Source: Anaerolineales bacterium
GTDB taxonomy: Bacteria; Chloroflexota; Anaerolineae; Anaerolineales; UBA11579
Direction: 5' to 3'
Assembly (NCBI GenBank): GCA_040902265.1
Contig: JBBDXQ010000108.1
Location: 1,706 to 65,705 of the forward strand
Length of the DNA: 64,000 nucleotides
Shown here: positions 19,322-60,539 of the stretch, piece by piece
Position numbering within the stretch: position 1 is the first letter of the stretch
Layout: the number at the start of each line of letters is the position of its first letter
Notes under the pieces: model-generated
Seen by the model: only the letters and a program-made list of their open reading frames with translations
Told to the model about the DNA's origin: nothing
The model's database searches: none
Program-made: the position numbers and the translations under genes

Positions 19322-19328
19322 TTTCATT

Positions 19329-19346: not shown

Positions 19347-19353
19347 TCTTATT

Positions 19354-21764: not shown

Positions 21765-21765
21765 T

Positions 21766-22701: not shown

Positions 22702-22729
22702 TCACAGTTATCATTCACAAACTAATTCA

Positions 22730-22757
22730 GCGGGCGGCTTCTGGCCGCCCGCTTGTT
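22730..22757 (+). terminator. intrinsic-terminator-like hairpin after the methyltransferase gene
   Basis: GCGGGCGGC-ttctg-GCCGCCCGC is a perfect 9-bp GC stem (10 bp with the flanking A:T). It is followed by TTGTT, so the U-tract is short and imperfect. Confidence 0.5.
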
Positions 22758-22768
22758 GGAGACCCAAA

Positions 22769-24190: not shown

Positions 24191-24208
24191 TTAAAGGCCA
24201 AGTGGGTC

Positions 24209-26818: not shown

Positions 26819-26828
26819 CCCACCAAGC

Positions 26829-26834
26829 TATAAT
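26829..26834 (+). promoter_or_regulatory. -10-like TATAAT 9 nt upstream of ATG 26844 (possible near-leaderless start)
   Basis: 'caagcTATAATTTTCAatccATG'. No SD. Same 11-mer as at 19316. Confidence 0.35.
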
Positions 26835-26843
26835 TTTCAATCC

Positions 26844-31817: not shown

Positions 31818-31818
31818 C

Positions 31819-33102: not shown

Positions 33103-33103
33103 G

Positions 33104-38382: not shown

Positions 38383-38384
38383 GC

Positions 38385-39449: not shown

Positions 39450-39462
39450 CCCTGCCAGCCAA

Positions 39463-40530: not shown

Positions 40531-40531
40531 C

Positions 40532-45625: not shown

Positions 45626-45626
45626 G

Positions 45627-46613
45627 ATGAAAATCCTCATTTCTGGGTTTGGCTCGATTGGGCGAAGGCACTTCCGCAATCTCAAGTCTTTAGGTGAGCG
45701 AGATATCTTGTTCCACCGCACCGGTTTCAGCCAGCTTCCCAACGAGGAGTTGGCCGGGCTGACCGTGGAAAACGACTTGGCGGCTGCATTGGGTCGCAAG
45801 CCAGACGCAGTGATCGTAGCGAATCCCACCGCCTTGCACTTGGACGTAGCCATTCCCGCGGCAAACGCAGGGTGCGCCTTGTTTTTGGAAAAACCGATCT
45901 CGCACAACATTGACAGAGTTGCTGAGTTGGAACGAGCGGCGAGAGCCAGTGGCAGTCGCCTGCTTGTCGGTTTTCAGTATCGCTTTCATCCCGGTTTGCA
46001 AAAGGCTTACGAATTCATCGCCTCGGGTGAGTTGGGCAAACCACTTTCCGCTCGTGCTCACTGGGGCGAATTCCTACCTAGCTGGCATCCTTGGGAAGAC
46101 TATCGCCGGGGCTATAGCGCCCGCAGTGATCTGGGCGGCGGGGTTGTGCTCACCCTGTGCCACCCCTTCGATTATTTGCGCATGTTGCTGGGTGATGTGG
46201 CCTCTGTGTGGGCTTCAACAGCTCACAGCGGCGAATTGGATATTGATGTGGAAGACCAGGCTGAGATCGGGCTGGAGTTCGAAAGCGGAGCGTTGGGTTC
46301 GATACATTTGGATTATCTGCAAAAGCCCGGTTCCCATTGGCTGGAAGTTACCTGCGCTCACGGCGCATTGCGACTTGACTTCAGTAGTAACCTACTCAAA
46401 ATTACTCGCTCTTCGAGCAGCGGCGAACAAGAGTTCCCCGCACCAGTTGGCTTTGAGCGCAACGACCTGTTCCTGGCACAAATGCGCCATTTCATTGAAG
46501 TCGCTAAAGGGGAAACGCAGCCAAAGTGTACGTTGACCGATGGGCGGAAAGCGCTGGAACTCGCTCTGGCGGTACACGCCTCGGCAGTAGAGGGGCATAA
46601 AGTTATCCCCTAG
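45627..46613 (+). CDS. Gfo/Idh/MocA-family NAD(P)-dependent sugar oxidoreductase
   Basis: ATG 45627 lies 1 nt after the upstream stop. 'MKILISGFGSIGRRHFRNL', 'AVIVANPTALH', 'LFLEKPISHN' (EKP motif). Confidence 0.85.
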   Translation: MKILISGFGSIGRRHFRNLKSLGERDILFHRTGFSQLPNEELAGLTVENDLAAALGRKPDAVIVANPTALHLDVAIPAANAGCALFLEKPISHNIDRVAELERAARASGSRLLVGFQYRFHPGLQKAYEFIASGELGKPLSARAHWGEFLPSWHPWEDYRRGYSARSDLGGGVVLTLCHPFDYLRMLLGDVASVWASTAHSGELDIDVEDQAEIGLEFESGALGSIHLDYLQKPGSHWLEVTCAHGALRLDFSSNLLKITRSSSSGEQEFPAPVGFERNDLFLAQMRHFIEVAKGETQPKCTLTDGRKALELALAVHASAVEGHKVIP

Positions 46614-46614
46614 A

Positions 46615-48228
46615 TCATTTCTGAGGCGGGATTAGATCCCAGAGGATGCTTTCAGATCCCTCGCGGAAGTAATAGGGGATGCCGTCGATCACATAAAGCT
46701 GGTAAGTCACTAAATAAGGCGCAAACTGCTCATCAGTATTTTCCCAGATCTGCGCAACCACATCCGGTTGTAAGATCCCGATCGAATACGCATAGTCCCA
46801 TTTGTTGTGCCCAGGGCGATAGCTGCCTGGCTCAAATAAACTGGAATTGATATGCACAGGCCCGCGAGCGATGATGGCGTCGTTCTTCCCCAACAGGTCG
46901 ATACTGGTGCGTTCTGAGAAGTATGGGATATTTCCAGCAGTCACTACGGCAATCGTCGCGTTTTGTGTAGTTACTGCTTTCAAAGCTAATCCCATCAAGC
47001 TGTAGCGTTCTACACTTTCAGCGAACACCGGCTTCTCGACTAAAGTCCACTTAGCGATGCCATCATTGACTAGGAGCGTATTGAAGCTAAACAGGCTGAA
47101 AATGCAGAACGCAGCCAGAAAAACACTTGCGACAGGAGTTGCCAAAGCCATCTTTTTCCACCCGGTGCTCAAGAGTAGGTCATGAATGTAGCCCAAAGTA
47201 TGAGTGAACAGAATGAAGAAAAGAGGCATAACCGCCGCGATAAAGCGGTTAGCGCCACCTATATGCTCCCAAGCATCACCCCCAACGTAGATGCTATAAG
47301 CCACCTGGCTCAGAAATACCGCAAAGAGCGGCCAGAGAATTTTTCTCTTATCTAGTGATGGCAGGGTCAGCGGGATGGCGAACAAAACCCAATTGGACGC
47401 CCAAACAAAATCCCAGAAGCGGCGTAAACCAATGCTGAGGCGTAAAAGCAATGAGACGCCACCAAGCTTCAGGTAATAGGTATTTGGCAACCAATCCCCA
47501 TAGTAGTTAATTCGAAACAAGGTGAGCGTGCCCAGGACAAATGCAACTGCCCCAAGCCCCCAGATCAAGTGTTCTTTGCGGCGCTTGGGGTCGATCCATG
47601 CAAATGCAGCCGTGGCAGCCAGGGCAGGCGCAGCCGCATCCATGCGCAGCAGGACCCCCAGGCCGAAAAGCACAGCCATCCACGGTGAAAAGATATTCCG
47701 TTTGAACGCCCTCACCCCAAGCAGTAAAGCGGAGCTAAGCAACAAAGCTTCTAATCCCACCTCCATTCCCTGTAGGCTCCAATTATTGAGCGGAAAGTAG
47801 AAGGCGGTGAAGAAAGCCGCCAGCAAAGGTACGAACTTGTTATTTGTCAGTTCCTCAGCCAACCATTTGACAACCGCCAGATTGAGGAGCAAAAAAAGTA
47901 AGCTGATTAACTTCACATAAAGACTGGTTTGGGCTAACGGGATAGGAAGCACATGGATTCCAGCCATTAGTAGCACCCATAATGGGTTGCTAAAGCCTTC
48001 AACCCTTTCTCCCCCTGCATTCCATACCAGACCCTGACCCTGCGCCAGATTTTTTGCATACTGCATCGAGATCATGGCGTCATCAAACAAGGCGTGTATT
48101 TGTGTCCCTTCGGCAAAGACAACAGTGCGTTGGATAAACGCCCAGCCATACAACGCGAAGACCACGAGCAGTAGCACAAAGAGGATTTGTTGCCAGTTGG
48201 GCGGTTTCATATAATAGTCATTGTTCAA
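46615..48228 (-). CDS. GT-C-like polytopic membrane protein (tandem paralogue 1)
   Basis: 537-aa ORF. 'ALFDDAMISMQYAKNLAQGQGLVWNAGGERVEGFSNPLWVL' follows TM1; about 11 or more TM segments; a C-terminal soluble domain carries 'AVVTAGNIPYFSER' and 'RPGHNKWDY'. Near-identical blocks occur in the adjacent ORF. Confidence 0.6.
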   Translation of the reverse strand: MNNDYYMKPPNWQQILFVLLLVVFALYGWAFIQRTVVFAEGTQIHALFDDAMISMQYAKNLAQGQGLVWNAGGERVEGFSNPLWVLLMAGIHVLPIPLAQTSLYVKLISLLFLLLNLAVVKWLAEELTNNKFVPLLAAFFTAFYFPLNNWSLQGMEVGLEALLLSSALLLGVRAFKRNIFSPWMAVLFGLGVLLRMDAAAPALAATAAFAWIDPKRRKEHLIWGLGAVAFVLGTLTLFRINYYGDWLPNTYYLKLGGVSLLLRLSIGLRRFWDFVWASNWVLFAIPLTLPSLDKRKILWPLFAVFLSQVAYSIYVGGDAWEHIGGANRFIAAVMPLFFILFTHTLGYIHDLLLSTGWKKMALATPVASVFLAAFCIFSLFSFNTLLVNDGIAKWTLVEKPVFAESVERYSLMGLALKAVTTQNATIAVVTAGNIPYFSERTSIDLLGKNDAIIARGPVHINSSLFEPGSYRPGHNKWDYAYSIGILQPDVVAQIWENTDEQFAPYLVTYQLYVIDGIPYYFREGSESILWDLIPPQK

Positions 48229-49852
48229 TTTTGCTTTTTACCAGCTCCCACAGCACATGTTCAGAATCAACCCGGATGAATAGCGGGAAACCGTCGATCT
48301 CGAAGTATTCATATCCCCCCGCCTCCAAATAAGGCGCCATCTCGCGACTGCTGCCCCAGATTTGCGCCACAATATCCGGGCTGAGCTCGACGATCGAGCG
48401 CTGGTAGTCCCACTTGTTGTGCCCCGGCCGGAAAACTTCTTCCACGTTGTCAAACGATCCACCGCTTTCGTGCGGCTGACTGCGGGCGATCACCTTGTCA
48501 CTTTTGCCCAACATGTCGATGCCGGCTCGTTCGGCGAAATAGATGATGTTGCCGGCAGTTACCACCGCGATCTGCGCCTGATCGTCCGTGATCTTGTTGA
48601 TCAGCAAACCCAGGGTCGCATAGCGTTGTGTCCCGGCTACAAAGATCGGCCGCTTGAGTGTGGCCCACTTGGCGAAGGCGTCGTTTTCCTTGATCACATT
48701 GAAACTGAACAGGCTGGCGGCCACAAACGCAGCCAGCAAGGCCTGGCTGACCAAGGAGGTCCAGCCACCACCCGGCCTTAATCCGGTCAAGAGGCGGCGC
48801 AGCTTGTCGGCGGATTGCACAAATAATAAAAAGAACAGGGGCATGGCCAGGGCGATGAAACGGTTCGCCCCGCCTTTGTGCTCCCAGGCATCCCCGCCAA
48901 CATAAATACTGTAGGCTACCTGGCCTAGCAGTAAGCCGAACAGCAATAACGTGGGTATATCAGGCCAGAGTAGTAAGAGCAACAAGGGTAGGACAACCAA
49001 GAACCAACCCGAGTCCCAAATGAAATCAAGAAATACTGAAAAACCGCGTTGCAACCGGTCACCCAAGGGGATACCAACGATCTTCAAGTAATAGGTATTC
49101 GGCAGCCATTCACCGTAATACCAATAACGTAGGGTGGTCTGCCCCACTAGAGAGAAAGCCAGTAACCCAAATCCCCAAATCAGGTGGCCTCTTCGAAGCC
49201 TAGGATCTTTCCACGCAAAAAACACGGTCATCACGACCAGCGGCACCACCATGTCGATACGCACCAAGGTCCCTACCGCCAATAGTACATAGGGCCATGG
49301 CGAAAAAGCGGCCATTTTCCAGCTTCTTAAGGCCAGCCAGACTGACGTGCTCAATATCAAAGCCAATAACCCCACTTCCATGCCTTGCAGGCTCCAGTTG
49401 TTCAAGTGGAAATAAAAGGCAGTCAGGAAAACCGCCAGCAAGGGAGCTAAAAAGCTTTTAAGAGATTGCCTTGCGATTGCCCAGACCACCAACAGGTTAG
49501 CCAACAAAAACACAGCCCCGCTAACTTGCACAGCCAGGCTAACTTGCGAACTAGCGATCGGGAATAAATGGAATAAGGCCATGTAGAGTACCCACAGCGG
49601 GTTGCTAAACCCCTCCACTCTTTCACCGCCACCATTCCAAACCATGCCTTCTCCGTCTGCCAGGTTGCGGGCGTATTGCATGGAGATCATGGCGTCGTCG
49701 AAGAGCGCATAGTATCGTTGCCCATCCACTTCAAAACTGGTGCGCTCGATGAAACGAAAAGAATACACCGAAAAGGCGGTTAAAACCGCAACTAAGCCCA
49801 CCAGGCTGAGAAGCATGGTGTTTTTCGGCGTAAACTGCGGCGGTTTTATCAT
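48218..49852 (-). CDS. GT-C-like polytopic membrane protein (tandem paralogue 2)
   Basis: 544-aa ORF overlapping its downstream paralogue by 11 nt. 'ALFDDAMISMQYARNLADGEGMVWNGGGERVEGFSNPLWVL', 'YSIYVGGDAWEHKGGANRFIA', 'AVVTAGNIIYFAER', 'RPGHNKWDY'. Confidence 0.6.
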   Translation of the reverse strand: MIKPPQFTPKNTMLLSLVGLVAVLTAFSVYSFRFIERTSFEVDGQRYYALFDDAMISMQYARNLADGEGMVWNGGGERVEGFSNPLWVLYMALFHLFPIASSQVSLAVQVSGAVFLLANLLVVWAIARQSLKSFLAPLLAVFLTAFYFHLNNWSLQGMEVGLLALILSTSVWLALRSWKMAAFSPWPYVLLAVGTLVRIDMVVPLVVMTVFFAWKDPRLRRGHLIWGFGLLAFSLVGQTTLRYWYYGEWLPNTYYLKIVGIPLGDRLQRGFSVFLDFIWDSGWFLVVLPLLLLLLWPDIPTLLLFGLLLGQVAYSIYVGGDAWEHKGGANRFIALAMPLFFLLFVQSADKLRRLLTGLRPGGGWTSLVSQALLAAFVAASLFSFNVIKENDAFAKWATLKRPIFVAGTQRYATLGLLINKITDDQAQIAVVTAGNIIYFAERAGIDMLGKSDKVIARSQPHESGGSFDNVEEVFRPGHNKWDYQRSIVELSPDIVAQIWGSSREMAPYLEAGGYEYFEIDGFPLFIRVDSEHVLWELVKSKIEQ

Positions 49853-50195: not shown

Positions 50196-51953
<1,758 letters not shown>

Positions 51954-51979: not shown

Positions 51980-52801
51980 ATGGCAAACCTGGCGAAGTCC
52001 TTTGACTTGAGTGGCCGCGTCGCCGTGGTGACCGGTGGCGCCGGTCTGCTCGGACGCCAGTTTTGCACCACTTTAGTTGAGGCAGGCGCTGCTGTGCTTG
52101 TGGCCGATGTGAATAGCGCGTCGGCTGAGCAAGTCGCCAAAGACCTTATCGCCGCCGGGCACACCGCCGCAGCCCACCCAACAGACGTTGGCGATCTGGC
52201 TTCAGTGCAGGCCATGGCTGTGGCTGCCATCCAGCTGTTTGGCCGCCTCGACATCCTGGTGAACAGCGCCGCACTCGATCCCAAATTCGACCAGGCCAGC
52301 CAAGCTAAACACAACACCGCTTTCGAAGAGTATCCGCTCCTGGCTTGGGAAGCTGCCATGAGGGTCAACCTTACCGGTGCATTCCTTTGCTCTCAGGTTG
52401 CAATCCGCCCCATGCTTGAGCAAGGCAGCGGGGTCATTGTTAACATCTGCTCCACGTACGGTCTTGGGGGTCCGGACCAACGCATTTATCAGAAACCCGG
52501 AATCGCCGCACAATACAAACCGGTCGACTATACCGTGACCAAGGCCGGTATCCTCGGCCTGACAAAATACCTGGCTACCTATTATGGCGACAAGAACATT
52601 CGCGTCAATGCGCTCACCCCTGGCGGCGTCTTCAACGCCCACGATGAGGAATTTACCAAAGCCTATTCTGCTCGCACGGTGTTGGGCCGCATGGCCGAGC
52701 CTTCTGAGATGAACGGCGCTCTGCTATTCCTGGCTTCCGATGCGTCTAGCTACATGACAGGAGCTAACCTGGTAGTTGACGGCGGATGGACGGCGTGGTG
52801 A
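51980..52801 (+). CDS. classical short-chain dehydrogenase/reductase (FabG/gluconate-5-dehydrogenase-like)
   Basis: 273-aa ORF. 'VAVVTGGAGLLGRQF', 'NSAA', 'YTVTKAGILGLTKYLA' (YxxxK), 'IRVNALTPGGV'. Confidence 0.85.
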   Translation: MANLAKSFDLSGRVAVVTGGAGLLGRQFCTTLVEAGAAVLVADVNSASAEQVAKDLIAAGHTAAAHPTDVGDLASVQAMAVAAIQLFGRLDILVNSAALDPKFDQASQAKHNTAFEEYPLLAWEAAMRVNLTGAFLCSQVAIRPMLEQGSGVIVNICSTYGLGGPDQRIYQKPGIAAQYKPVDYTVTKAGILGLTKYLATYYGDKNIRVNALTPGGVFNAHDEEFTKAYSARTVLGRMAEPSEMNGALLFLASDASSYMTGANLVVDGGWTAW

Positions 52802-54036
52802 GCCCCAAACAACCCGAGGTGCTTGCCATCGTGCCGGCTCGGGGCGGCTCGAAAAGCATCCCGCGCAAGAACGCGCAGCCCTTTCTTGGCCATCCACTGG
52901 TAGCTTTCAGCATTGCCGCCGGGCTCCAGTCAAAAAGCGTCGGCAGGGTCATTGTCTCGACAGATGACGAAGCGTTGGCAGAACTTGCCCGCCATTACGG
53001 CGCGGAAACGCCATTCTTGCGGCCTACCGAGTATGCCCAGGACGACTCGCCGGATCTGCCGGCTTTCCAGCATGCACTGCGCTGGCTGGCCAAGAATGAA
53101 AAGTACCGGCCTGATATCGTGGTTCAATTGCGCCCTACCTCGCCATTGCGTCCCAGAGACCTGGTGGACCGCTCCGTAGAGACATTGTTAGCGCATAATG
53201 AAGCGGATTCCGTGCGCGGCGTTGCTCCCGCCGGACAGAATCCCTACAAGATGTGGACTATTTCAAAAGAAGGTGGCATGCAGCCCCTGTTGAAAACAAG
53301 GGGACTGGCTGAACCCTACAATGCTCCGCGCCAGGCTTTGCCGCTTACCTATTGGCAGACCGGTCATATCGATGCGATACGCACACACACCATATTGAAG
53401 AAGGGCAGCATGAGCGGAGAAGTGATTTGGCCGGTACTGATCGATCCGCGTTACGCGGTGGATATCGATACACTAAACGATTGGCGTCGCGCTGAATGGC
53501 TGGCTGCCTCCGGCGAACTCGACATGGTCCGCCCGGGTTCCGCCCCGCGTCCACTGCCCAGCCAGGTCAAATTACTCGTCATGGATTTTGACGGGGTGCT
53601 TACGGATAACCGCGTCTGGGTTAATGAAGTAGGCAACGAGCAAGTGGCTGCCAACCGCAGTGATGGCCTGGGGGTCAAAATGCTGCTCAAAGCCGGAGTG
53701 ACTGTGCTGGTCATCTCGATGGAGGAGAATCCCGTCGTGGCTCGCCGCTGTGAGAAATTGGGCATTTCTTATAAAAAAGGGATTGCCAATAAAGGCCCGC
53801 TCTTGCAAGAGATCCTGGCCGAGCGTTCTGTTTCCGCGAATGAAGCTGTTTTCCTTGGCAACGATATTAACGACCTGCCATGTTTCCCGCTGGTGGCCTG
53901 CGGCGTTGCGGTTGCGGATGCGCATCCCGAAGTGATCCGAAAAGCGGATCTTGTGCTGGGCAAGCGCGGCGGTCAGGGCGCCGTGCGCGAACTGTGCGAC
54001 TTGATCCTGGCGAATAACTCCAAGGAGATTAAATGA
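52786..54036 (+). CDS. fusion protein: acylneuraminate-type cytidylyltransferase (N-terminal) plus KdsC/YrbI-type HAD sugar-phosphate phosphatase (C-terminal)
   Basis: 416-aa ORF. N-terminal 'LAIVPARGGSKSIPRKN', 'VIVSTDD', 'VVQLRPTSPLR'. C-terminal 'LLVMDFDGVLTDNRVWV', 'DGLGVKML', 'VFLGNDINDLP', 'GGQGAVRELCDLIL'. Confidence 0.8.
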   Translation: MDGVVSPKQPEVLAIVPARGGSKSIPRKNAQPFLGHPLVAFSIAAGLQSKSVGRVIVSTDDEALAELARHYGAETPFLRPTEYAQDDSPDLPAFQHALRWLAKNEKYRPDIVVQLRPTSPLRPRDLVDRSVETLLAHNEADSVRGVAPAGQNPYKMWTISKEGGMQPLLKTRGLAEPYNAPRQALPLTYWQTGHIDAIRTHTILKKGSMSGEVIWPVLIDPRYAVDIDTLNDWRRAEWLAASGELDMVRPGSAPRPLPSQVKLLVMDFDGVLTDNRVWVNEVGNEQVAANRSDGLGVKMLLKAGVTVLVISMEENPVVARRCEKLGISYKKGIANKGPLLQEILAERSVSANEAVFLGNDINDLPCFPLVACGVAVADAHPEVIRKADLVLGKRGGQGAVRELCDLILANNSKEIK

Positions 54037-54905
54037 CGCGTGAGCTACGTATTGGAAAGCAGATGGTCGGGGATGGGCATCCCACCTACATTGTGGGCGA
54101 GATCGGCATCAATCACAATGGCGATATTGAAATAGCCAAGCAGTTGATCGACCTGGCCAAATGGGCAGGTGCAAATGCGGTCAAATTTCAAAAACGCACT
54201 CCCGAACTGGCCGTCCCCGCCGACCAGAAAGATAAAATGCGCGAGACACCCTGGGGATACATCAGCTATTTGGAGTATCGTCACAAAGTGGAGTTTGGCG
54301 AAACGCAATACCGCCAGATCGATGCCCACTGCAAGCAGAAGGGATTGGATTGGTTTGTCTCCGTTTGGGATGAGGGGTCTGTGGACTTCATGGAAGCCTT
54401 TGACACCCCATGCTACAAAGTACCTTCCGCATCGCTGACGGATAGCAGTTTGCTTAAACACCTAAGGAGGACGGGCAAACCAATCGTAGTATCCACCGGC
54501 ATGTCCACCATGGAACAGATCAGAGCCGCTGTGGATCTGGTCGGATTGGATAACCTGATGCTGACTCATACCACCAGCACCTACCCCTGTGAACCGGAGG
54601 AGCTGAATTTAAGAATGATCACCACCTTGCGCCAGGCCTTCCCAGTACCAGTTGGCTATTCTGGGCACGAAGTCGGTCTGGTCATCTCGGCTGTGGCAGT
54701 GGCTATGGGCGCTTGCCTGGTGGAACGTCATATCACTCTGGACCGAGCCATGTGGGGCAGCGACCAGGCAGCTTCAGTGGAGCCAGGCGGTTTACAGCGC
54801 CTGGTGAAGTACATCCGCGTCACGGAGCAAGCCTTGGGGGATGGGGAAAAACGTGTCTACGATAGCGAAAAGCCTTCGCTACAAAAATTACGGCGAGTCC
54901 AATAA
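54033..54905 (+). CDS. NeuB-family ulosonic-acid synthase lacking the SAF domain
   Basis: 290-aa ORF with an ATGA overlap. 'PTYIVGEIGINHNGDIEIAKQLIDLAKWAGANAVKFQKR', 'YKVPSASLTD', 'GYSGHEVG', 'LVERHITLDR'. It ends about 60 aa short of the SAF-containing paralogue at 38385. Confidence 0.8.
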   Translation: MTRELRIGKQMVGDGHPTYIVGEIGINHNGDIEIAKQLIDLAKWAGANAVKFQKRTPELAVPADQKDKMRETPWGYISYLEYRHKVEFGETQYRQIDAHCKQKGLDWFVSVWDEGSVDFMEAFDTPCYKVPSASLTDSSLLKHLRRTGKPIVVSTGMSTMEQIRAAVDLVGLDNLMLTHTTSTYPCEPEELNLRMITTLRQAFPVPVGYSGHEVGLVISAVAVAMGACLVERHITLDRAMWGSDQAASVEPGGLQRLVKYIRVTEQALGDGEKRVYDSEKPSLQKLRRVQ

Positions 54906-54936: not shown

Positions 54937-56526
54937 TTGTTCGAGCGCATAACTTCCAAGATCCTAGGGCTGGTAAGCAATCGGCGCATTGCGGAGTTGG
55001 CCCGCGCCGTAGCCCAACGAGCCGCCCCGACTCCCGTCGCGCCAGCGGTCATCTTCTTCAACGCTTCTGCACGGCTCGGCCACCTCAGCCAGAATGCCGC
55101 CTTTTCACTTCTGGCTGCCTGGGGCTTGCGTCTGGCGGGCGTGCGCGTAATCCACTTCGTTTGCAACCGCGGCATGAGCCGCTGCGTGTTGGGCACCAAT
55201 CCTGACGACCCAACCCAGCCGCCTCCCTGCGCGGTTTGCGTGGCGCAATCCCAGCGATTGTATGCCCATGCGGATTCCCGTTGGTTCGAGTTTAGAAAAG
55301 AAGCCCAATTAGCCGAAGAATTGAAGGACCTGTCCCTTGCAGACCTCAAAAAATTCGCTCACAATGGATGGCCGTTGGGGGAGCTAGTGCTGCCCGGGCT
55401 TCGCTGGACTTTACGGCGCCATCACCTAGTAAATGACGAAGCCACGCGGTACCTCTATAAGCAATACATACTCTCCGCCTTCAATGTGGGTAGGGAATTC
55501 GAGAAACTGCTCGATGAGGAAGAGCCTCCACTCGCGGTAGTCCTTTTCAATGGCCTTATGTATCCCGAAGCTATGGCTGGCTGGCTGGCGCAACAGCGCA
55601 GCTTGCGCGTCATCACACATGAAGTAGCGCTGCTGCCGTTGTCTGCTTTTTTCACTGAAGGGCAGGCTACTGCATATCCAATGGAGATCCCTGCCGATTT
55701 CCACCTATCTCCAGAACAAAACGATCAGCTAGATCACTACCTTGAGGCTCGCCTTCAAGGCCAATTCACGATGGCTGGCATTCAGTTCTGGCCGGAGATG
55801 CAAGCACCGGACGCCAACTTTCTTACTAAAGCTGCCCAATTCAAAAAGATCGTGCCGGTGTTCACCAATGTGATCTTCGACACCAGCCAGGTGCACGCCA
55901 ATACGCTCTTTCCCCATATGTTCGCCTGGTTGGATGAAGTGCGCGAACTAATTAAGACGCATCCCGACACCCTTTTCGTAATCCGCGCCCATCCTGATGA
56001 AATGCGGCCTGGCACCCGCAAGCAAAGCCGCGAGAGTGTTGGCGGTTGGGTGCAACACAATGGTTTGGAAAAGCAGGCCAACGTGACCTTTGTGGGCTCG
56101 GATGTTTATCTAAGCTCTTACGCACTGATCCAACGTGCTCACTTTGTGATGGTTTACAACTCTTCGATCGGCTTGGAAGCCTCGATCATGAATAAGCCGG
56201 TGTTGTGCGCCGGCGCAGCGCGCTACACTTCTTATCCAACTGTGTTTTACCCCAACTCCACCGCCGCGTATCTAAAAACAGCTCAAGAGTTCTTGCGAGC
56301 GGAAAAAATGGAGCAGCCCCCCGAGTTTGTTGCAGAGGCGCGCCGCGTCCTGTATTTTCAGCTCTTTCGAACCGCCTTGCCTTTCAATGGTTATCTGCAG
56401 GCGCATACTCGTATGGGCTATGTCCATCTCAATTCATTCTCTTTCGACGATCTTCTTCCACAAAATTCGTCTGCCATGCGTGCCATATATGCCGGTGTTG
56501 TAAACGGCGACTCTTTTCTGGTATAA
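54937..56526 (+). CDS. GT-B-like protein, capsule-synthesis (KpsC/KpsS, GT107-like) layout; paralogue of 33104-34693
   Basis: 529-aa ORF with an apparent TTG start and no in-frame ATG for 78 codons. See the collinear blocks listed for 33104. A Cys cluster 'FVCNRGMSRCVLG...PPCAVCVAQ' near the N-terminus is absent from the paralogue. Confidence 0.5.
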   Translation: MFERITSKILGLVSNRRIAELARAVAQRAAPTPVAPAVIFFNASARLGHLSQNAAFSLLAAWGLRLAGVRVIHFVCNRGMSRCVLGTNPDDPTQPPPCAVCVAQSQRLYAHADSRWFEFRKEAQLAEELKDLSLADLKKFAHNGWPLGELVLPGLRWTLRRHHLVNDEATRYLYKQYILSAFNVGREFEKLLDEEEPPLAVVLFNGLMYPEAMAGWLAQQRSLRVITHEVALLPLSAFFTEGQATAYPMEIPADFHLSPEQNDQLDHYLEARLQGQFTMAGIQFWPEMQAPDANFLTKAAQFKKIVPVFTNVIFDTSQVHANTLFPHMFAWLDEVRELIKTHPDTLFVIRAHPDEMRPGTRKQSRESVGGWVQHNGLEKQANVTFVGSDVYLSSYALIQRAHFVMVYNSSIGLEASIMNKPVLCAGAARYTSYPTVFYPNSTAAYLKTAQEFLRAEKMEQPPEFVAEARRVLYFQLFRTALPFNGYLQAHTRMGYVHLNSFSFDDLLPQNSSAMRAIYAGVVNGDSFLV

Positions 56527-56533: not shown

Positions 56534-56791
56534 ATGGTCTCAAAAACAGAGGAGAGCGGTCTGTTGGAGGAATTGCGCAGCCTGATGGCTGAAATTTTCC
56601 ATGTGGACGCAGACCAGATCGGTGTTGAAGCTCAATTGGGTGAATTGCCGCAATGGGATTCCTTGACGCATATGGACTTAATGGTTGCGCTTGAATCGGC
56701 TTTTGGTATAGAGATCACTGCTGAAACTATTAGCCAGCTCACCAGCCTTCCGTCAATCTGGGCTTACATTCAAAGTCAGCAGCATGCCTGA
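56534..56791 (+). CDS. acyl/aminoacyl carrier protein
   Basis: 85-aa ORF. 'LGELPQWDSLTHMDLMVALESAFGIEI' is a DSL phosphopantetheine-attachment context in a four-helix ACP-sized protein. Confidence 0.75.
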   Translation: MVSKTEESGLLEELRSLMAEIFHVDADQIGVEAQLGELPQWDSLTHMDLMVALESAFGIEITAETISQLTSLPSIWAYIQSQQHA

Positions 56792-57971
56792 GCACAGCTT
56801 CTCTGCACAGGCAGCTGTCCCGGCACACCTGCGCTCCCAGGTGCAAGCCAAATTGGCCTTTGTCGATGAGAATATCGCAGGCGCTTCCATCTCTGCTGAT
56901 GGCAGCACGGTTAGCTTGCAATTGCGATCCATGGTTCCCAAACAGATCCTTGGGGAGCTGGAAGCCAAAGTGCAAAATGTGGTGACTGAAATGACTAAGG
57001 GGGCAGTGCCGCCCAAGATAGAGGTTCTGGAAGATCACCTGCAGCGCAGTCTCCCTTACGCCATCGACCCCATGCCAGGCTTGCTGTCCAGCGGCGAGGT
57101 CAGCCGCGAGCATACCGGCATATATAGCCTCGGCGCCAATCTCACGCGCCTTATTGCGGTATTTGAGTCTTATTTTTTGGAGCTGGCAACTGAATTTTCA
57201 GCCCTTCCGCAACGTTTTCCGGCGCTCATTTCTGCCGAAAAATTGGGGCGCGTCAATTATTTTCGTGCCTTCCCTCATTCGCTCACCTTCGCCACCCACT
57301 TACGTGAAGACCTGCATGTGATCAACGACTTTGCTGAACATGCCAAATACGAAATCGAAGGATTGAACGCACCCCCAGCCTCCTTCTCCAAGATCCAGGC
57401 GCTGCTTTCCCCCGCGGTGTGTTATCACCTCTATTTCAGCCTGGCTGACAAGCCCCTGCCGGGGGGCCAATTAGCTGCCACGGCGGTGGGACATTGCTTT
57501 CGCTACGAATCCAGCAACTTGAACACCTTGGAGCGCATGTGGGATTTCACCATGCGCGAGATCATATTCGTGGGACCGCCGGATTTCGTGCTGCAAAACC
57601 GAGAGCGTGCTCGCCAGCAGGTCGCTCTGTACCTTGAACGTCTTGGCTTGGCCTATAAAGTAGAAAGCGCCAATGATCCTTTCTTTGTCGGCGAATTTCG
57701 CAGGCAAGCTGCCTTCCAGAATGCATTTCAGCTCAAATATGAAATTCGCGCCAGCCTGCCCTTTAAGCATGACACCTTGGCGGTGGGCTCCTACAACTAT
57801 CACCAGGATTTCTTTGGTCGCCACCTTGGCATCACGCTGCCGGATGGCAAACCGGCCCACACCGGCTGCGTCGCATTCGGTTTGGAGCGTCTGGCCTATG
57901 CCTTCGTTTGCCAATTCGGTTTAGAGCCGGCTGGCTGGCCTGCCCACGTTCGTGAGGCATGGAATGGCTAA
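56784..57971 (+). CDS. amino acid--[acyl-carrier-protein] ligase (class-II aaRS / atypical SerRS catalytic-core homologue)
   Basis: 395-aa ORF overlapping the ACP gene by 8 nt. 'GHCFRYES' (motif-2-like fRxE), 'MREIIFVG', 'HTGCVAFGLERLAYAF' (motif-3-like). Candidate Zn ligands are Cys ('SPAVCYHLY'), Glu ('FRYE') and Cys ('HTGC'). No tRNA-binding N-terminal coiled coil is evident. Confidence 0.7.
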   Translation: MPEHSFSAQAAVPAHLRSQVQAKLAFVDENIAGASISADGSTVSLQLRSMVPKQILGELEAKVQNVVTEMTKGAVPPKIEVLEDHLQRSLPYAIDPMPGLLSSGEVSREHTGIYSLGANLTRLIAVFESYFLELATEFSALPQRFPALISAEKLGRVNYFRAFPHSLTFATHLREDLHVINDFAEHAKYEIEGLNAPPASFSKIQALLSPAVCYHLYFSLADKPLPGGQLAATAVGHCFRYESSNLNTLERMWDFTMREIIFVGPPDFVLQNRERARQQVALYLERLGLAYKVESANDPFFVGEFRRQAAFQNAFQLKYEIRASLPFKHDTLAVGSYNYHQDFFGRHLGITLPDGKPAHTGCVAFGLERLAYAFVCQFGLEPAGWPAHVREAWNG

Positions 57972-58440
57972 GCTCTCTGTGCGCCAGGCAGAGGCAGAAG
58001 ACTTAGCGGCAGTTGCCGCGGCTTGGACCAAACTGCAAGTGTTACATCGCAGTCTGGGGTTGGCTTTCACTTTTCCTCCAGATGCGGCCGAACAATGGCT
58101 GGCTTCCTTTCAGCGCACCTTGGGTCGCTTCAGCTTCTTATGGGTGATCGGACCTTTAGGACAACCGGACGCTTTTTTATTAGCCCGCATCAAACAAAGC
58201 CCTGCTTTTCTGGGTGGTGTCCAGGTCGGGGAGATCAGCGATCTCTATGTAGCCAATAGCCTGCGCGGTTCCGGCGCGGGGACCGCGTTGGCCAAAACGG
58301 CCATGCGTAAATTCCAGGAGCTCGGCTTGCATTCAGTGGAGGTGCAGGTGCTAGCTGGCAACGAGTCGGGGTTGGCTTTCTGGGTCAAGCTGGGTTTCGC
58401 GCAAGACCTTTCCCTGGTGCGTAAAGTGTTGAAGGCCTGA
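57964..58440 (+). CDS. GNAT-family N-acyltransferase
   Basis: ATG 57964 overlaps the ligase stop. 'ISDLYVANSLRGSGAGTALAKTAMRKFQELGLHSVEVQVLAGNESGLAFWVKLGF' is the acyl-CoA-binding R/Q-x-x-G-x-G/A motif. Confidence 0.75.
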   Translation: MAKLSVRQAEAEDLAAVAAAWTKLQVLHRSLGLAFTFPPDAAEQWLASFQRTLGRFSFLWVIGPLGQPDAFLLARIKQSPAFLGGVQVGEISDLYVANSLRGSGAGTALAKTAMRKFQELGLHSVEVQVLAGNESGLAFWVKLGFAQDLSLVRKVLKA

Positions 58441-58441
58441 G

Positions 58442-59221
58442 ATGCCGTTTCCAGAATTGACTCATTCCGAATTAATCCAGACGCTGGAATCAGTGGGCGT
58501 GCTACCCGGCGACGGGGTGCTGGTGCATTCGGCTTTGCAATTGCTGGGCAAGCCAAACGGTGGCCTGCAAATGGTGTTCGATGCCATCGTCGAGGTGATC
58601 GGACCCACAGGCACACTGGCGGTGCCGACTTTCCCCTTCACCTTCAGCCGCGGTCTGGATTACGATCCGCTTACCACACCTTCGCAAGGCATGGGTGCTT
58701 TCTCGGAGTTCGTCCGCCAAGTTCCGCAGGCGCTCCGCACCACCCATCCTATGCAGCCTGTTGCTCTGGTCGGTGGGCATGCTGCCGATCTGGCCCAACG
58801 CGATACGCTATCCGCGTTCGATGACGGCTCGGCGTTCGACCGCATGTTGCAATTGGGCTTCAAGATGCTGTTACTAGGCGCGGATATCCAGGCCGCTTCT
58901 ATCGTTCATTACTCCGAGCAGCGTGCTGCAGTCCCCTACCGCTATTGGAAAGATTTCACCGGGCGCGTAAAGGTGGGCGATGCATGGAAAACGAAAACCT
59001 ACCGCATGTTCGTGCGCGACCTGGATCTGGATGCGCAACTCAAGCTCACGCCCATTCAGAGGACATTAGAAGCTGAAGGCTTGTGGCGTACCACGAAGCT
59101 GAACTTTGGCGAAGTAGCCTGTTGCCCCCTTACCGCATTTGTGGCAGCGGCCGACGAATTACTGGCTGCCAACCCTTGGGTGCTGGTGACCAACAGACCA
59201 CGGCAGGTGGCAGACAGCTGA
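58442..59221 (+). CDS. AAC(3)-family (Antibiotic_NAT fold) N-acyltransferase homologue
   Basis: 259-aa ORF. 'LPGDGVLVHSALQLLGKPNGGLQMVFDAIVEVIGPTGTLAVPTF', 'MGAFSEF', 'RTTHPMQPVALVG', 'SIVHYSEQ' are typical aminoglycoside 3-N-acetyltransferase-family blocks. Confidence 0.8.
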   Translation: MPFPELTHSELIQTLESVGVLPGDGVLVHSALQLLGKPNGGLQMVFDAIVEVIGPTGTLAVPTFPFTFSRGLDYDPLTTPSQGMGAFSEFVRQVPQALRTTHPMQPVALVGGHAADLAQRDTLSAFDDGSAFDRMLQLGFKMLLLGADIQAASIVHYSEQRAAVPYRYWKDFTGRVKVGDAWKTKTYRMFVRDLDLDAQLKLTPIQRTLEAEGLWRTTKLNFGEVACCPLTAFVAAADELLAANPWVLVTNRPRQVADS

Positions 59222-59222
59222 G

Positions 59223-60539
59223 ATGTCCACCATGATGGAGTTGATCGAGGAACTCTGGTTCCTCAAACGCGACCTCGTCTCTGAAGGGTACGACCGCGCC
59301 TTGGAACGCCTGGCCGCTGAGCTTCCCATGACCATCCACGAGTTCGCCTCGGGGGCAAATGTTTGGACCTGGACAATTCCAGACGCCTGGACTTGCCACG
59401 AAGCTTATTTGGAAACATTGGACGGCAAACGCCTGATCGACGTGGCAGATCACCCCCTCCATGTCGTTTCGTATTCCCTGCCCTTCGAGGGCGAAGTCAG
59501 TCGGCAAGAATTGCTGCAGCACTTACATGTGCATGCGCATCTTCCGGATGCCATTCCGTATGTATTCAAGGTCTACCAGCGTGACTGGGGTCTGTGCGCC
59601 TCGCAAAAGCTCCGTGATTCTCTCAAGGACGAGCGCTACCGTGTAGTTATCCGCACGGAATTCACCCCCGGTGTTCTCAAGGTCGGTGAGGTGCTGGTCT
59701 CCGGCGAGCGTGAAGAGTCTTTCATGGTCGCCGCTCATCTAGACCACCCAGCCATGGTCAACGATGACCTTTCCGGAGTTGTGGTTGAATTGGAAGCCGC
59801 TCGGCAACTTCTGGCCGGTCCCAAACCGTATTACAGCTATCGATTTCTCTTTCTGCCAGAGACGCTGGGGTCCATCGCCTATCTCAGCAGCCACGAACAC
59901 CTGATCCCCGGCATGCTTGGCGGTCTCTTCCTCGAAATGCTGGGCAATGATGCTGTGCACGCCTTGCAGACTTCATTTCTGGCTGGGAGCGCGGCTGACA
60001 TCTGCCTGGTGGCAGCCCTACGTGGTGTCGAGCCAGGCGCTTACGTGGGCGCTTACCGTACCATCATTGATAACGACGAACGCCAATTTAATGCCCCTGG
60101 AGTGCGGGTACCCATGCTTTCGCTTTCTCGCGTTGTGGATGCCTACCTACCAGCCTCGCGTTTTTACCCTTACCCTGAGTACCATTCCAGCCTGGACTCG
60201 CCCGCCATCATCTCTACTGAGCGCTTGGAATCTTCTGTTCAGCTGGTGCTCGAACTCCTCTCCGCATTTGATCGTAATCGCTACATCGTCAACCGCTTCA
60301 AAGGCGAGGTCTTTGCCACTGGGTATGGCCTCTGGGTGGACTATAGGACGGATTCTGCCGCTCACAAACTCCGTTTCGAAATCATGGATCGCTGCGATGG
60401 CACCCGCCGTCCAGCCGATATCGCTCATGAACTTGGTTTGTCTTTTCAGCAAGTTTGGGAGCTTATAGAAATCTTGCTGGAGAAAGATCTGGTATTTCTC
60501 AGTCAGTCCCCGCAGCCGACTGACCCGCATCTCGCCTAA
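59223..60539 (+). CDS. DUF4910/DUF2172 aminopeptidase-like (M28-like) protein with a C-terminal winged helix
   Basis: 438-aa ORF. 'IHEFASGANVWTWTIPDAWTCHEAYLETLDGKRLIDVADHPLHVVSYSLPFEG..ELLQHLH..PDAIPYVFKVYQRDWGLC' fits the family pattern as I recall it. The C-terminal 'RRPADIAHELGLSFQQVWELIEILLEKDLVFL' is wHTH-like. Confidence 0.7.
   Translation: MSTMMELIEELWFLKRDLVSEGYDRALERLAAELPMTIHEFASGANVWTWTIPDAWTCHEAYLETLDGKRLIDVADHPLHVVSYSLPFEGEVSRQELLQHLHVHAHLPDAIPYVFKVYQRDWGLCASQKLRDSLKDERYRVVIRTEFTPGVLKVGEVLVSGEREESFMVAAHLDHPAMVNDDLSGVVVELEAARQLLAGPKPYYSYRFLFLPETLGSIAYLSSHEHLIPGMLGGLFLEMLGNDAVHALQTSFLAGSAADICLVAALRGVEPGAYVGAYRTIIDNDERQFNAPGVRVPMLSLSRVVDAYLPASRFYPYPEYHSSLDSPAIISTERLESSVQLVLELLSAFDRNRYIVNRFKGEVFATGYGLWVDYRTDSAAHKLRFEIMDRCDGTRRPADIAHELGLSFQQVWELIEILLEKDLVFLSQSPQPTDPHLA

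Follow-up and report, generated by a model that had tools for sequence, protein, structure and literature searches.

A cytidylyltransferase-HAD fusion coupled to a SAF-less NeuB homologue: a probable phosphorylated route to a sialic-acid-like sugar in an Anaerolineales bacterium

Synthesis of sialic-acid-like sugars through a phosphorylated intermediate is known from animals, one alga and Bacteroides. In Bacteroides thetaiotaomicron, the Kdn pathway employs the synthase BT1714 and the phosphatase BT1713, and mutant forms of the latter are represented in the PDB by 4HGQ (E56A) and 4HGR (E56A/K67A). Human NANS, the Neu5Ac-9-P synthase, accepts both ManNAc-6-P and Man-6-P (PMC6200933, table 2), while the Kdn-9-P synthetase of P. 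parvum accepts only Man-6-P, Ara-5-P not being accepted. In vertebrates, dephosphorylation is carried out by a separate enzyme, NANP, and the C-terminal domain of mouse CMAS, the CMP-sialic acid synthetase, is reported to be inactive, with no detectable phosphatase activity (PMC8636478). The Kdo pathway (KdsA, KdsC, KdsB) follows the same logic, of PEP condensing with a sugar phosphate, followed by a YrbI-family phosphatase and a CMP-transferase. The canonical NeuB, PseI and LegI synthases use unphosphorylated sugars, with no need for a phosphatase, and they possess a SAF domain, in which Arg314 has been point-mutated in the case of N. meningitidis NeuB (PDB 4IPI, 4IPJ).

Here we describe a gene pair in a stretch of 64,000 nucleotides (the window) from the genome of an Anaerolineales bacterium, on whose + strand all of the features discussed below are located. 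This pair very probably makes and activates a sialic-acid-like sugar, likeliest Kdn, via a phosphorylated intermediate, and we consider this explanation, taken as a whole, to be a likely one. What the comparisons presented here show directly is the identity of the domains, the conservation of residues, the phylogenetic placement and the linkage of the genes; the catalytic activities, the sugar and its acceptor are all inferred from these.

The first gene of the pair (52786-54036) encodes a bifunctional protein of 416 aa, with a cytidylyltransferase at residues ~10-240 and a C0 HAD domain at residues ~256-413, as recognized through Pfam, NCBIfam and PDB matches (3MMZ, 9FTB and 3E81). The original prediction, of a CMP-sugar cytidylyltransferase fused to a YrbI/KdsC-type HAD in a single ORF, is borne out by the coordinates and by the Pfam and NCBIfam profiles; the motifs it had named, DFDGVLTD, GNDINDLP and GGQGAVRE, are all found in the protein, and the domain and motif matches are far beyond chance. 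An alternative start, a GTG at 52798, is used in the NCBI annotation (P0001, 412 aa, 100% identical to the fusion protein over 412 aa), and it creates a GTGA overlap with the SDR gene upstream. The cytidylyltransferase (CTP_transf_3) domain (52822-53502), which would make the CMP-sugar, is matched by PF02348 at residues 14-150 (E = 1.2e-17, 64.9 bits versus a cut-off of 22.6) and by the PseF-like model TIGR03584 at residues 13-239 (153.3 bits, under the equivalog cut-off of 205.7). The best PDB structures for this domain are of the NeuA type (NeuA 9FTB, 100 bits; CMP-Neu5Ac synthetase 6IFD, 90 bits), and its NCBIfam scores are far higher on PseF/NeuA-type than on KdsB models. Pfam Hydrolase_3 is also matched in the fusion protein. 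The order of the domains, cytidylyltransferase then KdsC-like, is the CMAS-type architecture, and such fusions are common and already annotated: among the best 150 50%-identity cluster representatives, 65 have the same order and 4 have the reverse one.

The Kdn-9-P-phosphatase-like HAD domain (53560-54024) matches TIGR01670, 'KdsC-phosphatase, YrbI family', at residues 261-412 with 112.5 bits, over the cut-off of 106.95, but scores below the cut-offs of two more specific models, the KdsC equivalog NF007019 (128.4 bits versus 208), which is the best-scoring named NCBIfam model for this domain, and the equivalog for Kdn-9-P phosphatases of the BT type, NF058599 (84 bits versus 180). The catalytic Asp pair, whose loss would have spoken against a phosphatase in the original prediction, is present, and this motif I pair and the motif III Lys do not vary in any of 119 close and 69 distant fused homologues, position 54 (BT1713 numbering) being always Ser or Thr in both sets; the distant set consists of two-domain representatives with C-domain identity to the window as low as 29%. 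Equivalents of BT1713 D10, D12, T54 (Ser here), E56, R64, K67, K80, D104 and D107 are all kept, the carboxylate-binding Arg64 among them, and in the 69 representatives Glu56 is conserved in 67, Lys67 in 68 and Arg64 in 65. The Kdo-8-P phosphatases in our alignment have Arg or Ala at position 56 and Ser or Gln at position 67.

One residue departs from this pattern. Motif IV reads GNDIND in the window and GDDxxD, with acidic residues holding Mg2+, in BT1713 and the aligned Kdo-8-P phosphatases, so that BT1713 Asp103 is replaced by Asn in the window, as it is in all 119 close fused homologues, in 62 of the 69 distant ones, in 3MMZ and in mouse CMAS, while 21 of the 27 free-standing HAD partners of the same synthase type keep the Asp. 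In the alignment made here, position 103 corresponds to Asp125 of E. coli KdsC, which we take to be a Mg2+ ligand. As the Asn is common to the window and the mouse CMAS C-domain, a reduced or altered activity of the HAD domain is possible. The tree of the HAD domains is poorly supported, three Kdo-8-P phosphatases splitting from the rest in 11% of replicates. In one locus (L088), a cluster of legionaminic-acid-like type, the NeuB bears a SAF domain and a phosphate route is not expected, yet the HAD domain of the fused protein there is intact, and thus the HAD domain alone proves nothing about the route.

The second gene of the pair (54033-54905) encodes a NeuB-family protein of 290 aa, a putative nonulosonate-9-phosphate synthase (PEP + hexose 6-phosphate) as suggested by the Pfam match, sequence identity, clade and signature motifs. 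Pfam NeuB (PF03102) is matched over model positions 1-241 of 241 (263.5 bits, E = 2.1e-78, cut-off 22.1), with scores below the equivalog cut-offs of NeuB_NnaB TIGR03569 (258.9 versus 399.65) and PseI TIGR03586 (208.4 versus 340.25). The Pfam profile search returns no match to SAF (PF08666) in this protein, which in the alignment stops where SAF-bearing proteins run on into the C-terminal region. As the best 120 homologues are 279-291 aa in length (all but one 289-291 aa), and as the next gene begins 31 nt downstream, the short synthase is not a truncated one. Direct reading of the sequence shows a Shine-Dalgarno motif, AAGGAG (54023-54028), within the 3' end of the fusion gene and 4 nt ahead of the ATG of the synthase, and along with the ATGA overlap ('...gag att aaA TGA cgc...') it indicates translational coupling. 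These features confirm the earlier description of an ATGA-coupled NeuB homologue of this size devoid of SAF. Absence of SAF does not, however, serve as a marker of the phosphate route, since BT1714-like synthases (~346 aa) and NANS (359 aa) keep their C-terminal domains, and since the SAF-less protein 6NCS does not possess the signatures of the clade described below.

As to the phylogeny of the synthase, the closest characterized enzyme is human NANS (38.6% identical, E = 8e-70; sequence verified via exact look-up), and the P. parvum enzyme shares 34% identity along its whole length. In neighbor-joining trees, which are distance-based and built from a small sample, these three group with 78% bootstrap, and the clade formed with the addition of synthases adjoining BT1713 orthologues, whose characterized members have been shown experimentally to condense PEP with sugar 6-phosphates, has 93%; NmNeuB, PseI, SpsE and the SAF-bearing NeuB of the window fall outside. 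The placement relative to Kdn-9-P and Neu5Ac-9-P synthases, raised as a check in the original prediction, is thus with the users of sugar 6-phosphates. In these sequence comparisons, BT1713 orthologues at 61-75% identity stood in for BT1713/BT1714. Common to the clade is K-x-x-K-(R/S), a candidate signature derived in this analysis rather than an established criterion, located right after the position aligned with NmNeuB Gln55: it reads KFQKR in the window synthase and 78 of 80 metagenome relatives (KLQKR in the remaining two), KFQKS in NANS and KMTKR in BT1714-like proteins, while NmNeuB (HQTH), PseI (IQTY) and SpsE (FQMF) have T/N/M then H/F/Y, and 6NCS has FQAY. Another motif of the window synthase, GYSGHE, recurs in NANS and the P. 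parvum enzyme alone among the reference synthases aligned. Both signatures, the basic pair and GYSGHE, are present in 80/80 metagenome relatives, and the window synthase also carries a GSDQAASVEP signature.

The linkage of these genes extends well beyond the window. The pair of a fusion and a short NeuB recurs in loci L001, L084, L085 and L086, whose fusion proteins are, respectively, 67, 55, 46 and 39% identical to that of the window. A KdsC-type phosphatase directly adjoins this type of synthase in 39 of 53 metagenome loci, fused in 19 and free-standing (163-208 aa) in 20, and the presence of a fusion within 5 kb in 7 further loci brings the number with a phosphatase in that range to 46/53. 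Likewise, a NeuB homologue is found immediately upstream of the BT1713 orthologue in 80 Bacteroidota loci. The gene upstream of the fusion (51980-52801) encodes a classical SDR oxidoreductase (adh_short_C2, 163 bits; best NCBIfam PRK09186, 183 bits, under the cut-off of 255) and overlaps the fusion start; Anaerolineales relatives keep it ahead of the fusion, with the same position in L001, L082 and L083, and is present in 29 of the 41 metagenome loci with sufficient upstream sequence. A GFO/IDH/MocA oxidoreductase gene (45459-46613) is recognized by Pfam and by synteny: in L001 it immediately precedes the SDR gene, in L082 it precedes that gene after a gap, and in the window the two are parted by a PAPS-synthase insertion. 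Downstream, a Capsule_synth (KpsC/KpsS)-like protein of 529 aa (54937-56526; PF05159, 31.9 bits), with a weak BFO_1060-family match and a weak KpsC match in the PDB, is a candidate CMP-sugar transferase. Its homologues are directly downstream in L001, L083 and 17 of 45 metagenome loci, and the neighboring position in L085 and L086 is taken by sialyltransferase families, genes for a polysialyltransferase (PF07388) and CST-I (PF06002) flanking the pair there. Further on (56534-60539), Pfam and NCBIfam recognize a carrier protein, an amino acid--[carrier protein] ligase, a GNAT, an AAC(3)-like N-acetyltransferase and a DUF4910/M28-like protein, in the same gene order as in L001 and L083. This block probably provides tailoring chemistry, aminoacyl or acyl transfer, and it may act on the sugar of the module.

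Overall, the translationally coupled SDR, fusion and synthase genes would form the core of a CMP-nonulosonate pathway through a 9-phosphate intermediate. The 290-aa enzyme would condense PEP with a hexose 6-phosphate into a nonulosonate 9-phosphate, Kdn-9-P if the substrate is mannose 6-phosphate; the C-terminal HAD domain of the neighboring fusion protein would take off the 9-phosphate, and the N-terminal domain of the same protein would join the free sugar acid with CMP. The KpsC/KpsS-like protein would then probably move the sugar onto a sulfated surface glycan, with export predicted through the Wzm/Wzt transporter of the same island. Man-6-P as the substrate, giving Kdn, is the most economical reading, of fewest assumptions, and fits a supply from central metabolism; parsimony is the sole basis for preferring Kdn to an N-acyl-neuraminic acid.

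The same 9-phosphate route may instead lead to an N-acyl or N-aminoacyl neuraminic acid, an outcome we consider unlikely while giving it real weight. In that case, the GFO/IDH/MocA and SDR enzymes would make an amino-hexose 6-phosphate, the GNAT, the AAC(3)-like protein or the carrier-protein ligase system would acylate it, and the synthase would add PEP. Schoenhofen et al. reportedly described in 2009 the conversion of Fru-6-P to GlcN-6-P by a pair of this kind, PtmA (SDR) and PtmF (GFO-type). The presence of these two genes at the flanks of the CMP-synthetase gene in clusters for legionaminic acid (PMC4481668, table 5), the greater closeness of the window synthase to NANS than to Man-6-P-specific enzymes, and the retention of the accessory block downstream in L001 and L083 are all consistent with such a product. 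However, the more distant loci L084-L086 have the same gene pair without any of these accessory genes, the conserved block includes neither a 2-epimerase nor an aminotransferase, the best NCBIfam score of the SDR is under the cut-off, and the acyl-transfer genes could equally modify another sugar of the glycan.

Kdn formation through the 9-phosphate would also be mistaken if the HAD domain were a non-catalytic platform for oligomerization, as reported for the vertebrate CMP-sialic acid synthetase, with the short NeuB using an unphosphorylated sugar. The reportedly inactive mouse CMAS domain of the same fold family, the Asn it shares with the fused family at position 103, and the fusion adjoining a SAF-bearing NeuB in L088 agree with this; yet the nucleophilic Asp is gone from the vertebrate domain, whereas the catalytic and the Glu/Arg/Lys residues of the window family are invariant or nearly so even in its most divergent members, the free-standing HADs, linked equally often (20/53 loci), cannot be platforms for a cytidylyltransferase, and the synthase clusters with users of sugar phosphates, making the platform highly improbable. 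Least credible, to the point of being barely worth entertaining, is a pathway from arabinose 5-phosphate to Kdo or a different octulosonic acid, with a NeuB-type replacement of KdsA working alongside KdsC-like and KdsB-like domains. KdsC is indeed the best named model for the C-domain (128 bits), and the transferase encoded downstream is similar to the beta-Kdo transferases KpsC/KpsS, but the score is under the equivalog cut-off, Glu and Lys stand where Kdo-8-P phosphatases have Arg/Ala and Ser/Gln, the P. parvum relative refuses Ara-5-P, and the N-domain prefers PseF/NeuA-type over KdsB models. The Kdo-8-P route, listed among the options in the original prediction, is accordingly unlikely.

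The window also contains another ulosonic-acid set (36440-41290), comprising a PseB-type 4,6-dehydratase (TIGR03589, 466 bits, over the cut-off of 407.75), an RmlD-like reductase, a NeuB with SAF, a GT4 and a KdsB-like cytidylyltransferase. The NeuB paralogue (38385-39449) carries both the NeuB and SAF domains and belongs to a clade with PseI, NmNeuB and SpsE. Redundancy of the two NeuB homologues is unlikely, as they are 29% identical, belong to different clades, and each is accompanied by a separate cytidylyltransferase and a separate Capsule_synth-like transferase; the proposal that two ulosonic acids may be made here by two different routes is thus supported.

Compared with the known systems, the pair can be set beside that of B. 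thetaiotaomicron, in which a NeuB-family synthase likewise adjoins a YrbI-type C0 HAD. The synthases share the 93% clade, and the window HAD keeps the catalytic and specificity residues of BT1713 save Asp103 (Asn), but it is fused behind a cytidylyltransferase and is 30% identical to BT1713-type phosphatases, and the BT1714-type synthases possess a C-terminal domain, GFSDHT and K-M-T-K-R versus GYSGHE and KFQKR in the window. The P. parvum synthase is likewise SAF-less (312 aa) and shares KFQKR, the SGH motif and a TDHAASLEP-type motif; P. parvum, however, is eukaryotic, its CMP-Kdn synthetase is a single-domain protein with a transmembrane tail, and that alga yielded no homologue of the phosphatase. 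Vertebrate CMAS matches the fusion in domain order and in the Asn at position 103, but its nucleophile is lost ('CNIDG' in mouse, versus 'DFDG' retained in the window), NANS keeps its C-terminal antifreeze-like (SAF) domain, and among PDB matches the window N-domain scores higher on bacterial NeuA structures (100 bits) than on mouse CMAS (55 bits). With the Kdo pathway, the TIGR01670 subfamily of the phosphatase is shared, while the synthase is NeuB-type and not KdsA/DAHP-synthase-type, the phosphatase specificity residues differ, and the cytidylyltransferase is NeuA/PseF-like, not KdsB-like. The canonical NeuB/NeuA, PseI/PseF and LegI/LegF systems, one set of which is present in the window itself, employ the same Pfam families for synthase and cytidylyltransferase but do not possess the K-(R/S) and SGH signatures. 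The 'sialic acid synthetase' 6NCS, the best PDB match by E-value (4.6e-36), is also SAF-less and of 290 aa, but has KFQAY in place of KFQKR and GYSDHS in place of GYSGHE, and it does not have the WG...Y..H..EF insert; its placement is unstable (55% bootstrap for the clade including it). As it possesses none of the signatures and is not stably placed within the sugar-phosphate clade, SAF must have been lost more than once. In conclusion, the locus represents a new example of a known pathway and not a new kind of system.

The two genes in question belong to a long glycan-biosynthesis island, nearly all of it on the plus strand, of an uncultured Anaerolineales bacterium (Chloroflexota), a phylum whose surface glycans are, to our knowledge, almost unstudied. 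The first of these genes (52786-54036) encodes a 416-aa protein, 100% identical to 'MAG: HAD hydrolase family protein [Anaerolineales bacterium]' from a 67,200-bp contig, in which Pfam places CTP_transf_3 at residues 14-150 and a HAD model toward the C-terminus. By the NCBIfam models, it consists of a PseF/NeuA-like cytidylyltransferase (residues 13-239, 153 bits) and a phosphatase of the YrbI/KdsC subfamily (TIGR01670, residues 261-412, 112.5 bits with a cut-off of 106.95). The second gene (54033-54905; MEX2144546.1, same contig) encodes a 290-aa synthase that covers the whole NeuB model of Pfam (263.5 bits) and in which the Pfam scan detected no SAF domain, whereas both NeuB and SAF are matched in the paralog at 38385-39449. 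The original prediction of a fusion gene coupled through ATGA to a synthase lacking the SAF domain of its paralog is thus borne out: both ORFs are in place and the overlap is genuine, with AAGGAG just before it. With the GTG start at 52798 (the choice of NCBI), a GTGA overlap also joins the fusion gene to the stop of the SDR gene before it, and the SDR, fusion, and synthase genes are then all translationally coupled. Truncation or frameshift as the origin of the short synthase is ruled out by the conserved length of its best 120 homologs (279-291 aa, all but one 289-291 aa). The generic database names 'acylneuraminate cytidylyltransferase / HAD hydrolase family protein' and 'N-acetylneuraminate synthase family protein' can now be replaced with a specific, testable pathway.

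The relatives of the short synthase point to a substrate that is a sugar phosphate. The references in this comparison were the Kdn-9-P synthetase of P. parvum (312 aa, likewise SAF-less, from the supplement of PMC6200933), human NANS (an exact match to NP_061819.2 / SIAS_HUMAN), N. meningitidis NeuB (NmNeuB), PseI, SpsE, and the SAF-less 6NCS, the latter four rebuilt from PDB alignments, and a set of BT1714-like proteins. These are the NeuB homologs encoded immediately upstream of orthologs of BT1713, the Kdn-9-P phosphatase of Bacteroides thetaiotaomicron, in at least 80 Bacteroidota loci; the neighbors of BT1713 orthologs at 61-75% identity stand in for BT1714, the Kdn-9-P synthase of this species. 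Against NANS, the short synthase shows 38.6% identity (E = 8e-70); the figures are 34% for the P. parvum enzyme, 30-38% for the BT1714-like proteins, and 29% for its own paralog. A neighbor-joining tree of 275 TIM-barrel columns places it with NANS and the P. parvum enzyme (78% bootstrap), and these together with the BT1714-like proteins form a clade of 93% support that leaves outside NmNeuB, PseI, SpsE, and the SAF-bearing NeuB of the window. The clade carries a K-x-x-K-(R/S) signature, KFQKR in the window, directly after the position aligned with NmNeuB Gln55, which we take to be a ManNAc-binding residue, while at the K-(R/S) site NmNeuB, PseI, and SpsE have T/N/M followed by H/F/Y. Lys54 and Arg55 of the short synthase, we propose, may bind the 6-phosphate. 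A WG/YG...Y..H..EF insert and a G(S/T)D(Q/H)..S motif are also common to the clade, and GYSGHE is shared, among the references, by the window synthase, NANS (GYSGHE), and the P. parvum enzyme (GFSGHH) only. When metagenome contigs were scanned with an alignment of five short synthases, KFQKR (or KLQKR) and GYSGH were present in all of the 80 relatives taken from among the matches listed. A missing SAF domain is rejected as a marker of the phosphate route, as SAF loss does not track the sugar-phosphate clade: the BT1714-like proteins and NANS keep the C-terminal domain, and 6NCS has neither SAF nor the signatures. The presence or absence of SAF is thus unfit for spotting sugar-phosphate-using NeuB homologs in metagenomes, for which KFQK(R/S) plus GYSGHE in the synthase, and Glu56 plus Lys67 in the phosphatase, are candidate signatures.

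The phosphatase domain was aligned with BT1713 (sequence from the PMC6200933 supplement, identical to PDB 3E81), three PDB relatives, and 119 close homologs, and a distant set was made of 69 two-domain 50%-identity cluster representatives, with C-domain identity to the window down to 29%. In BT1713 numbering, the catalytic Asp pair of motif I (D10, D12), on which the proposed activity depended, is retained in the window domain, in the 119 close homologs, and in 69/69 of the distant set, as is K80 of motif III. T54 of motif II is Ser in the window and invariant in the close homologs (Ser or Thr in the distant set), and D104 and D107 of motif IV, R64, which contacts the substrate carboxylate, and E56 and K67, the residues mutated in PDB 4HGQ/4HGR, are all kept in the window and invariant in close homologs, the distant set having E56 in 67/69, K67 in 68/69, and R64 in 65/69. 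In the aligned Kdo-8-P phosphatases, position 56 is Arg or Ala, and position 67 is Ser or Gln. In a HAD-domain tree, the three Kdo-8-P phosphatases were split from the rest in just 11% of replicates, and residue markers were used in place of this tree.

The one departure is D103 of motif IV, which is Asn in the window ('GNDIND', 53866-53883), in 119/119 close homologs, in 62/69 distant representatives, and in PDB 3MMZ (S. avermitilis). In our alignment, this position corresponds to Asp125 of E. coli KdsC, presumably a Mg2+ ligand. Asn103 tracks the fused state, being found in 27/27 fused proteins vs. 5/27 free-standing HADs beside the same synthase type in the 80 metagenome loci; the free-standing proteins keep D10, D12, E56, K67, K80, and D107, and 21/27 have Asp at 103. 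The most evident counter-example to an active domain is the C-domain of vertebrate CMP-sialic acid synthetase (CMAS), homologous to these phosphatases but reported to lack phosphatase activity (PMC8636478). In mouse CMAS (PDB 3EWI) it reads 'LLVCNIDG', the nucleophilic Asp being lost, where the window reads 'VMDFDG'. As the mouse domain, too, has Asn at position 103 ('GNEVSD'), this residue appears, from the alignment, to be a trait common to the fused lineage and not per se a mark of decay.

What speaks most strongly against the phosphatase being purely structural is its linkage to the synthase, since this holds with the phosphatase either fused or free-standing. In L001 (CP075526.1) and L083, two relatives' loci whose fusion proteins are, respectively, 67% and 66% identical to that of the window, the whole block from the first NeuB gene to a third cytidylyltransferase gene is conserved. 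Smaller sets are found in L084 (fusion 55% identical), with the fusion and a short NeuB, in L085 (46%), with the same two genes and then a gene of the PF07388 polysialyltransferase family, and in L086 (39%), in the order PF06002 CST-I-family gene, short NeuB, fusion. Among the 53 of the 80 metagenome loci in which the upstream sequence extends for 1,300 nt or more, the synthase is directly adjoined by the fusion in 19, by a free-standing KdsC-type HAD of 163-208 aa in 20, and by a cytidylyltransferase alone in 2. None of these adjoins it in the other 12, 7 of which have a fusion elsewhere within 5 kb. A counter-example is presented by L088 (1041-6242), where a fusion 34% identical to that of the window, with HAD residues intact, is found in a legionaminic-acid-type cluster (Epimerase_2, SAF-bearing NeuB, hexapeptide acetyltransferase, and CBS plus NTP_transferase, i.e., a PtmE-like nucleotidyltransferase). 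Other arrangements also occur. In a Ginsengibacter MAG (L064:4158-5918), these three activities are fused differently: a protein of 586 aa, encoded directly upstream of a BT1713 ortholog, joins a cytidylyltransferase-like region at its N-terminus to a NeuB homolog with a C-terminal domain. Another arrangement involves a group of proteins of approximately 550-570 aa with weak NeuB similarity (24-28% identity), on a separate branch of their own in the tree, that adjoin the BT1714-like/BT1713-like pair in several Flavobacteriales-type loci (L018:6523-8190, L025:2317-4029, L061:2728-4401, L069:2682-4346, L072:2559-4214).

As to the product, Kdn needs the fewest assumptions because its precursor, mannose 6-phosphate, belongs to central metabolism; the minimal loci (L084-L086) are consistent with this reading. 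An N-acyl or N-aminoacyl neuraminic acid is a real alternative, because NANS, the nearest characterized enzyme, accepts ManNAc-6-P too, and because of the flanking gene sets. The Anaerolineales module is flanked by a GFO/IDH/MocA oxidoreductase and an SDR, reminiscent of PtmF/PtmA, a pair that adjoins LegF in legionaminic acid clusters (PMC4481668), and by a conserved block (56534-60539) encoding a carrier protein, a seryl-tRNA-synthetase-like amino acid--[carrier protein] ligase, a GNAT, an AAC(3)-like N-acetyltransferase, and a DUF4910/DUF2172/M28-like protein. The gene order of this block is kept in L001 and L083, and it looks like a system for aminoacyl tailoring of a glycan or sugar; NCBIfam scans gave no specific names to the accessory genes. 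Kdo, listed as an option in the original prediction, is unlikely, judging from the scores of the TIGR/NCBIfam models, from residues 56 and 67, which differ from those of Kdo-8-P phosphatases, and from the P. parvum enzyme, which converted Man-6-P (100%) but not Ara-5-P, ManNAc-6-P, Man, ManNAc, or ManN (all 0; PMC6200933).

The first ulosonic-acid gene set (36440-41290) is of a different kind, encoding a PseB-type inverting 4,6-dehydratase (466 bits, above the equivalog cut-off), an RmlD-like reductase, a NeuB with SAF that falls in a clade with PseI, NmNeuB, and SpsE, a KdsB-like cytidylyltransferase, and, between the latter two, a GT4. No aminotransferase, PseG, or PseH was found adjoining this set, and its product may be a non-canonical 9-deoxy nonulosonic acid, with a hydroxyl replacing the 7-amino group. 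Redundancy of the two NeuB genes is argued against by their different clades in the tree and their 29% identity. As each set also has its own cytidylyltransferase, the data are best read, we infer, in the way originally proposed, with two different products made via two different routes; enzymes that behave as predicted would give a single organism two distinct nine-carbon acidic sugars, each by one of the two known routes. A Capsule_synth-like protein is encoded near each set (32951-34693 and 54937-56526), the second, a 529-aa transferase, having only marginal KpsC matches in PDB (E = 0.007).

The surrounding genes tell of the glycan itself. A bifunctional ATP sulfurylase/APS kinase (PAPS synthase; 50196-51953) and four sulfotransferase-domain genes (35547-36443, 44603-45625, 60542-61402, 61396-62253) suggest that it is heavily sulfated; the PAPS synthase is in the same place in L083 and absent from L001. 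The only long minus-strand genes of the island, two ORFs of 537 and 544 aa (46615-49852), have no Pfam match, and their counterparts of 532 and 541 aa lie beside the PAPS synthase in L083. Wzm/Wzt-type ABC transporter genes, the Wzt with a C-terminal carbohydrate-binding domain, are followed by the 580-aa Capsule_synth-like protein (30918-34693 in all). These genes imply an ABC-transporter-dependent polysaccharide, and one of the ulosonic acids may cap the end of its chain. A third CTP_transf_3 cytidylyltransferase (227 aa, 63234-63917) is at the end of the window, with a counterpart at the corresponding position in L001; any partner synthase would lie beyond the window. Farther upstream (16647-28409), two large PMT_2 (ArnT-like) membrane proteins are encoded among glycosyltransferases and methyltransferases, with a radical SAM protein (19327-20838) and a flavin amine oxidase-like protein (22769-24190), and two long ORFs (14591-16666 and 24209-26818) have no Pfam match.

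Wider readings can be proposed. The short 'GYSGHE' synthase and the cytidylyltransferase-phosphatase fusion form a pair found in abundance among Anaerolineales and other uncultured bacteria. Of all prokaryotic systems, this pair may be the nearest equivalent of eukaryotic NANS/CMAS, because the synthase motif is common only to NANS and the algal Kdn-9-P synthetase and because the fused phosphatase has the Asn103 of the vertebrate CMAS C-domain yet keeps the catalytic residues. The module would then reveal what the animal enzymes were like in their ancestral, fully functional state or, alternatively, mark a lineage involved in transfer between bacteria and eukaryotes. Independently, the PtmA/PtmF-like oxidoreductases and the carrier-protein aminoacyl machinery raise the possibility that the Anaerolineales version attaches a novel N-aminoacyl neuraminic acid to a sulfated glycan. 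We consider these readings improbable. Should the enzymes behave as predicted, the inactive C-domain of animal CMP-sialic acid synthetase would have an active relative in the fusion, which could also serve one-pot synthesis of CMP-Kdn.

Overall, the practical weight of the findings is modest, since both the route and the fusion have precedents in other systems. The two-domain architecture is very common. At least 8,000 database proteins match the fusion at E <= 1e-10, the best 120 being named 'acylneuraminate cytidylyltransferase' or similar wherever a source names them, and among the 50%-identity cluster representatives there are 28,571 matches, with both domains in 69 of the best 150. Kdn-9-P phosphatase orthologs reportedly also occur fused to the nucleotidyltransferase of the pathway. 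We found no characterized members among the short GYSGHE synthases or among the fused proteins with Asn103, and nothing useful in the literature on KDN9PP and on nonulosonic acids in Chloroflexi. Animals, B. thetaiotaomicron, and P. parvum are known to follow the order of a synthase acting on a sugar 6-phosphate, a phosphatase, and CMP activation (PMC6200933), and the cytidylyltransferase-KdsC architecture is known from vertebrate CMAS and from 'some types of bacteria' (PMC8636478). What may be mildly notable is that both routes coexist in one island, along with a PAPS synthase and several sulfotransferases, that the bacterial short synthase is so close to eukaryotic NANS, and that the fusion carries an apparently intact version of the CMAS C-domain.
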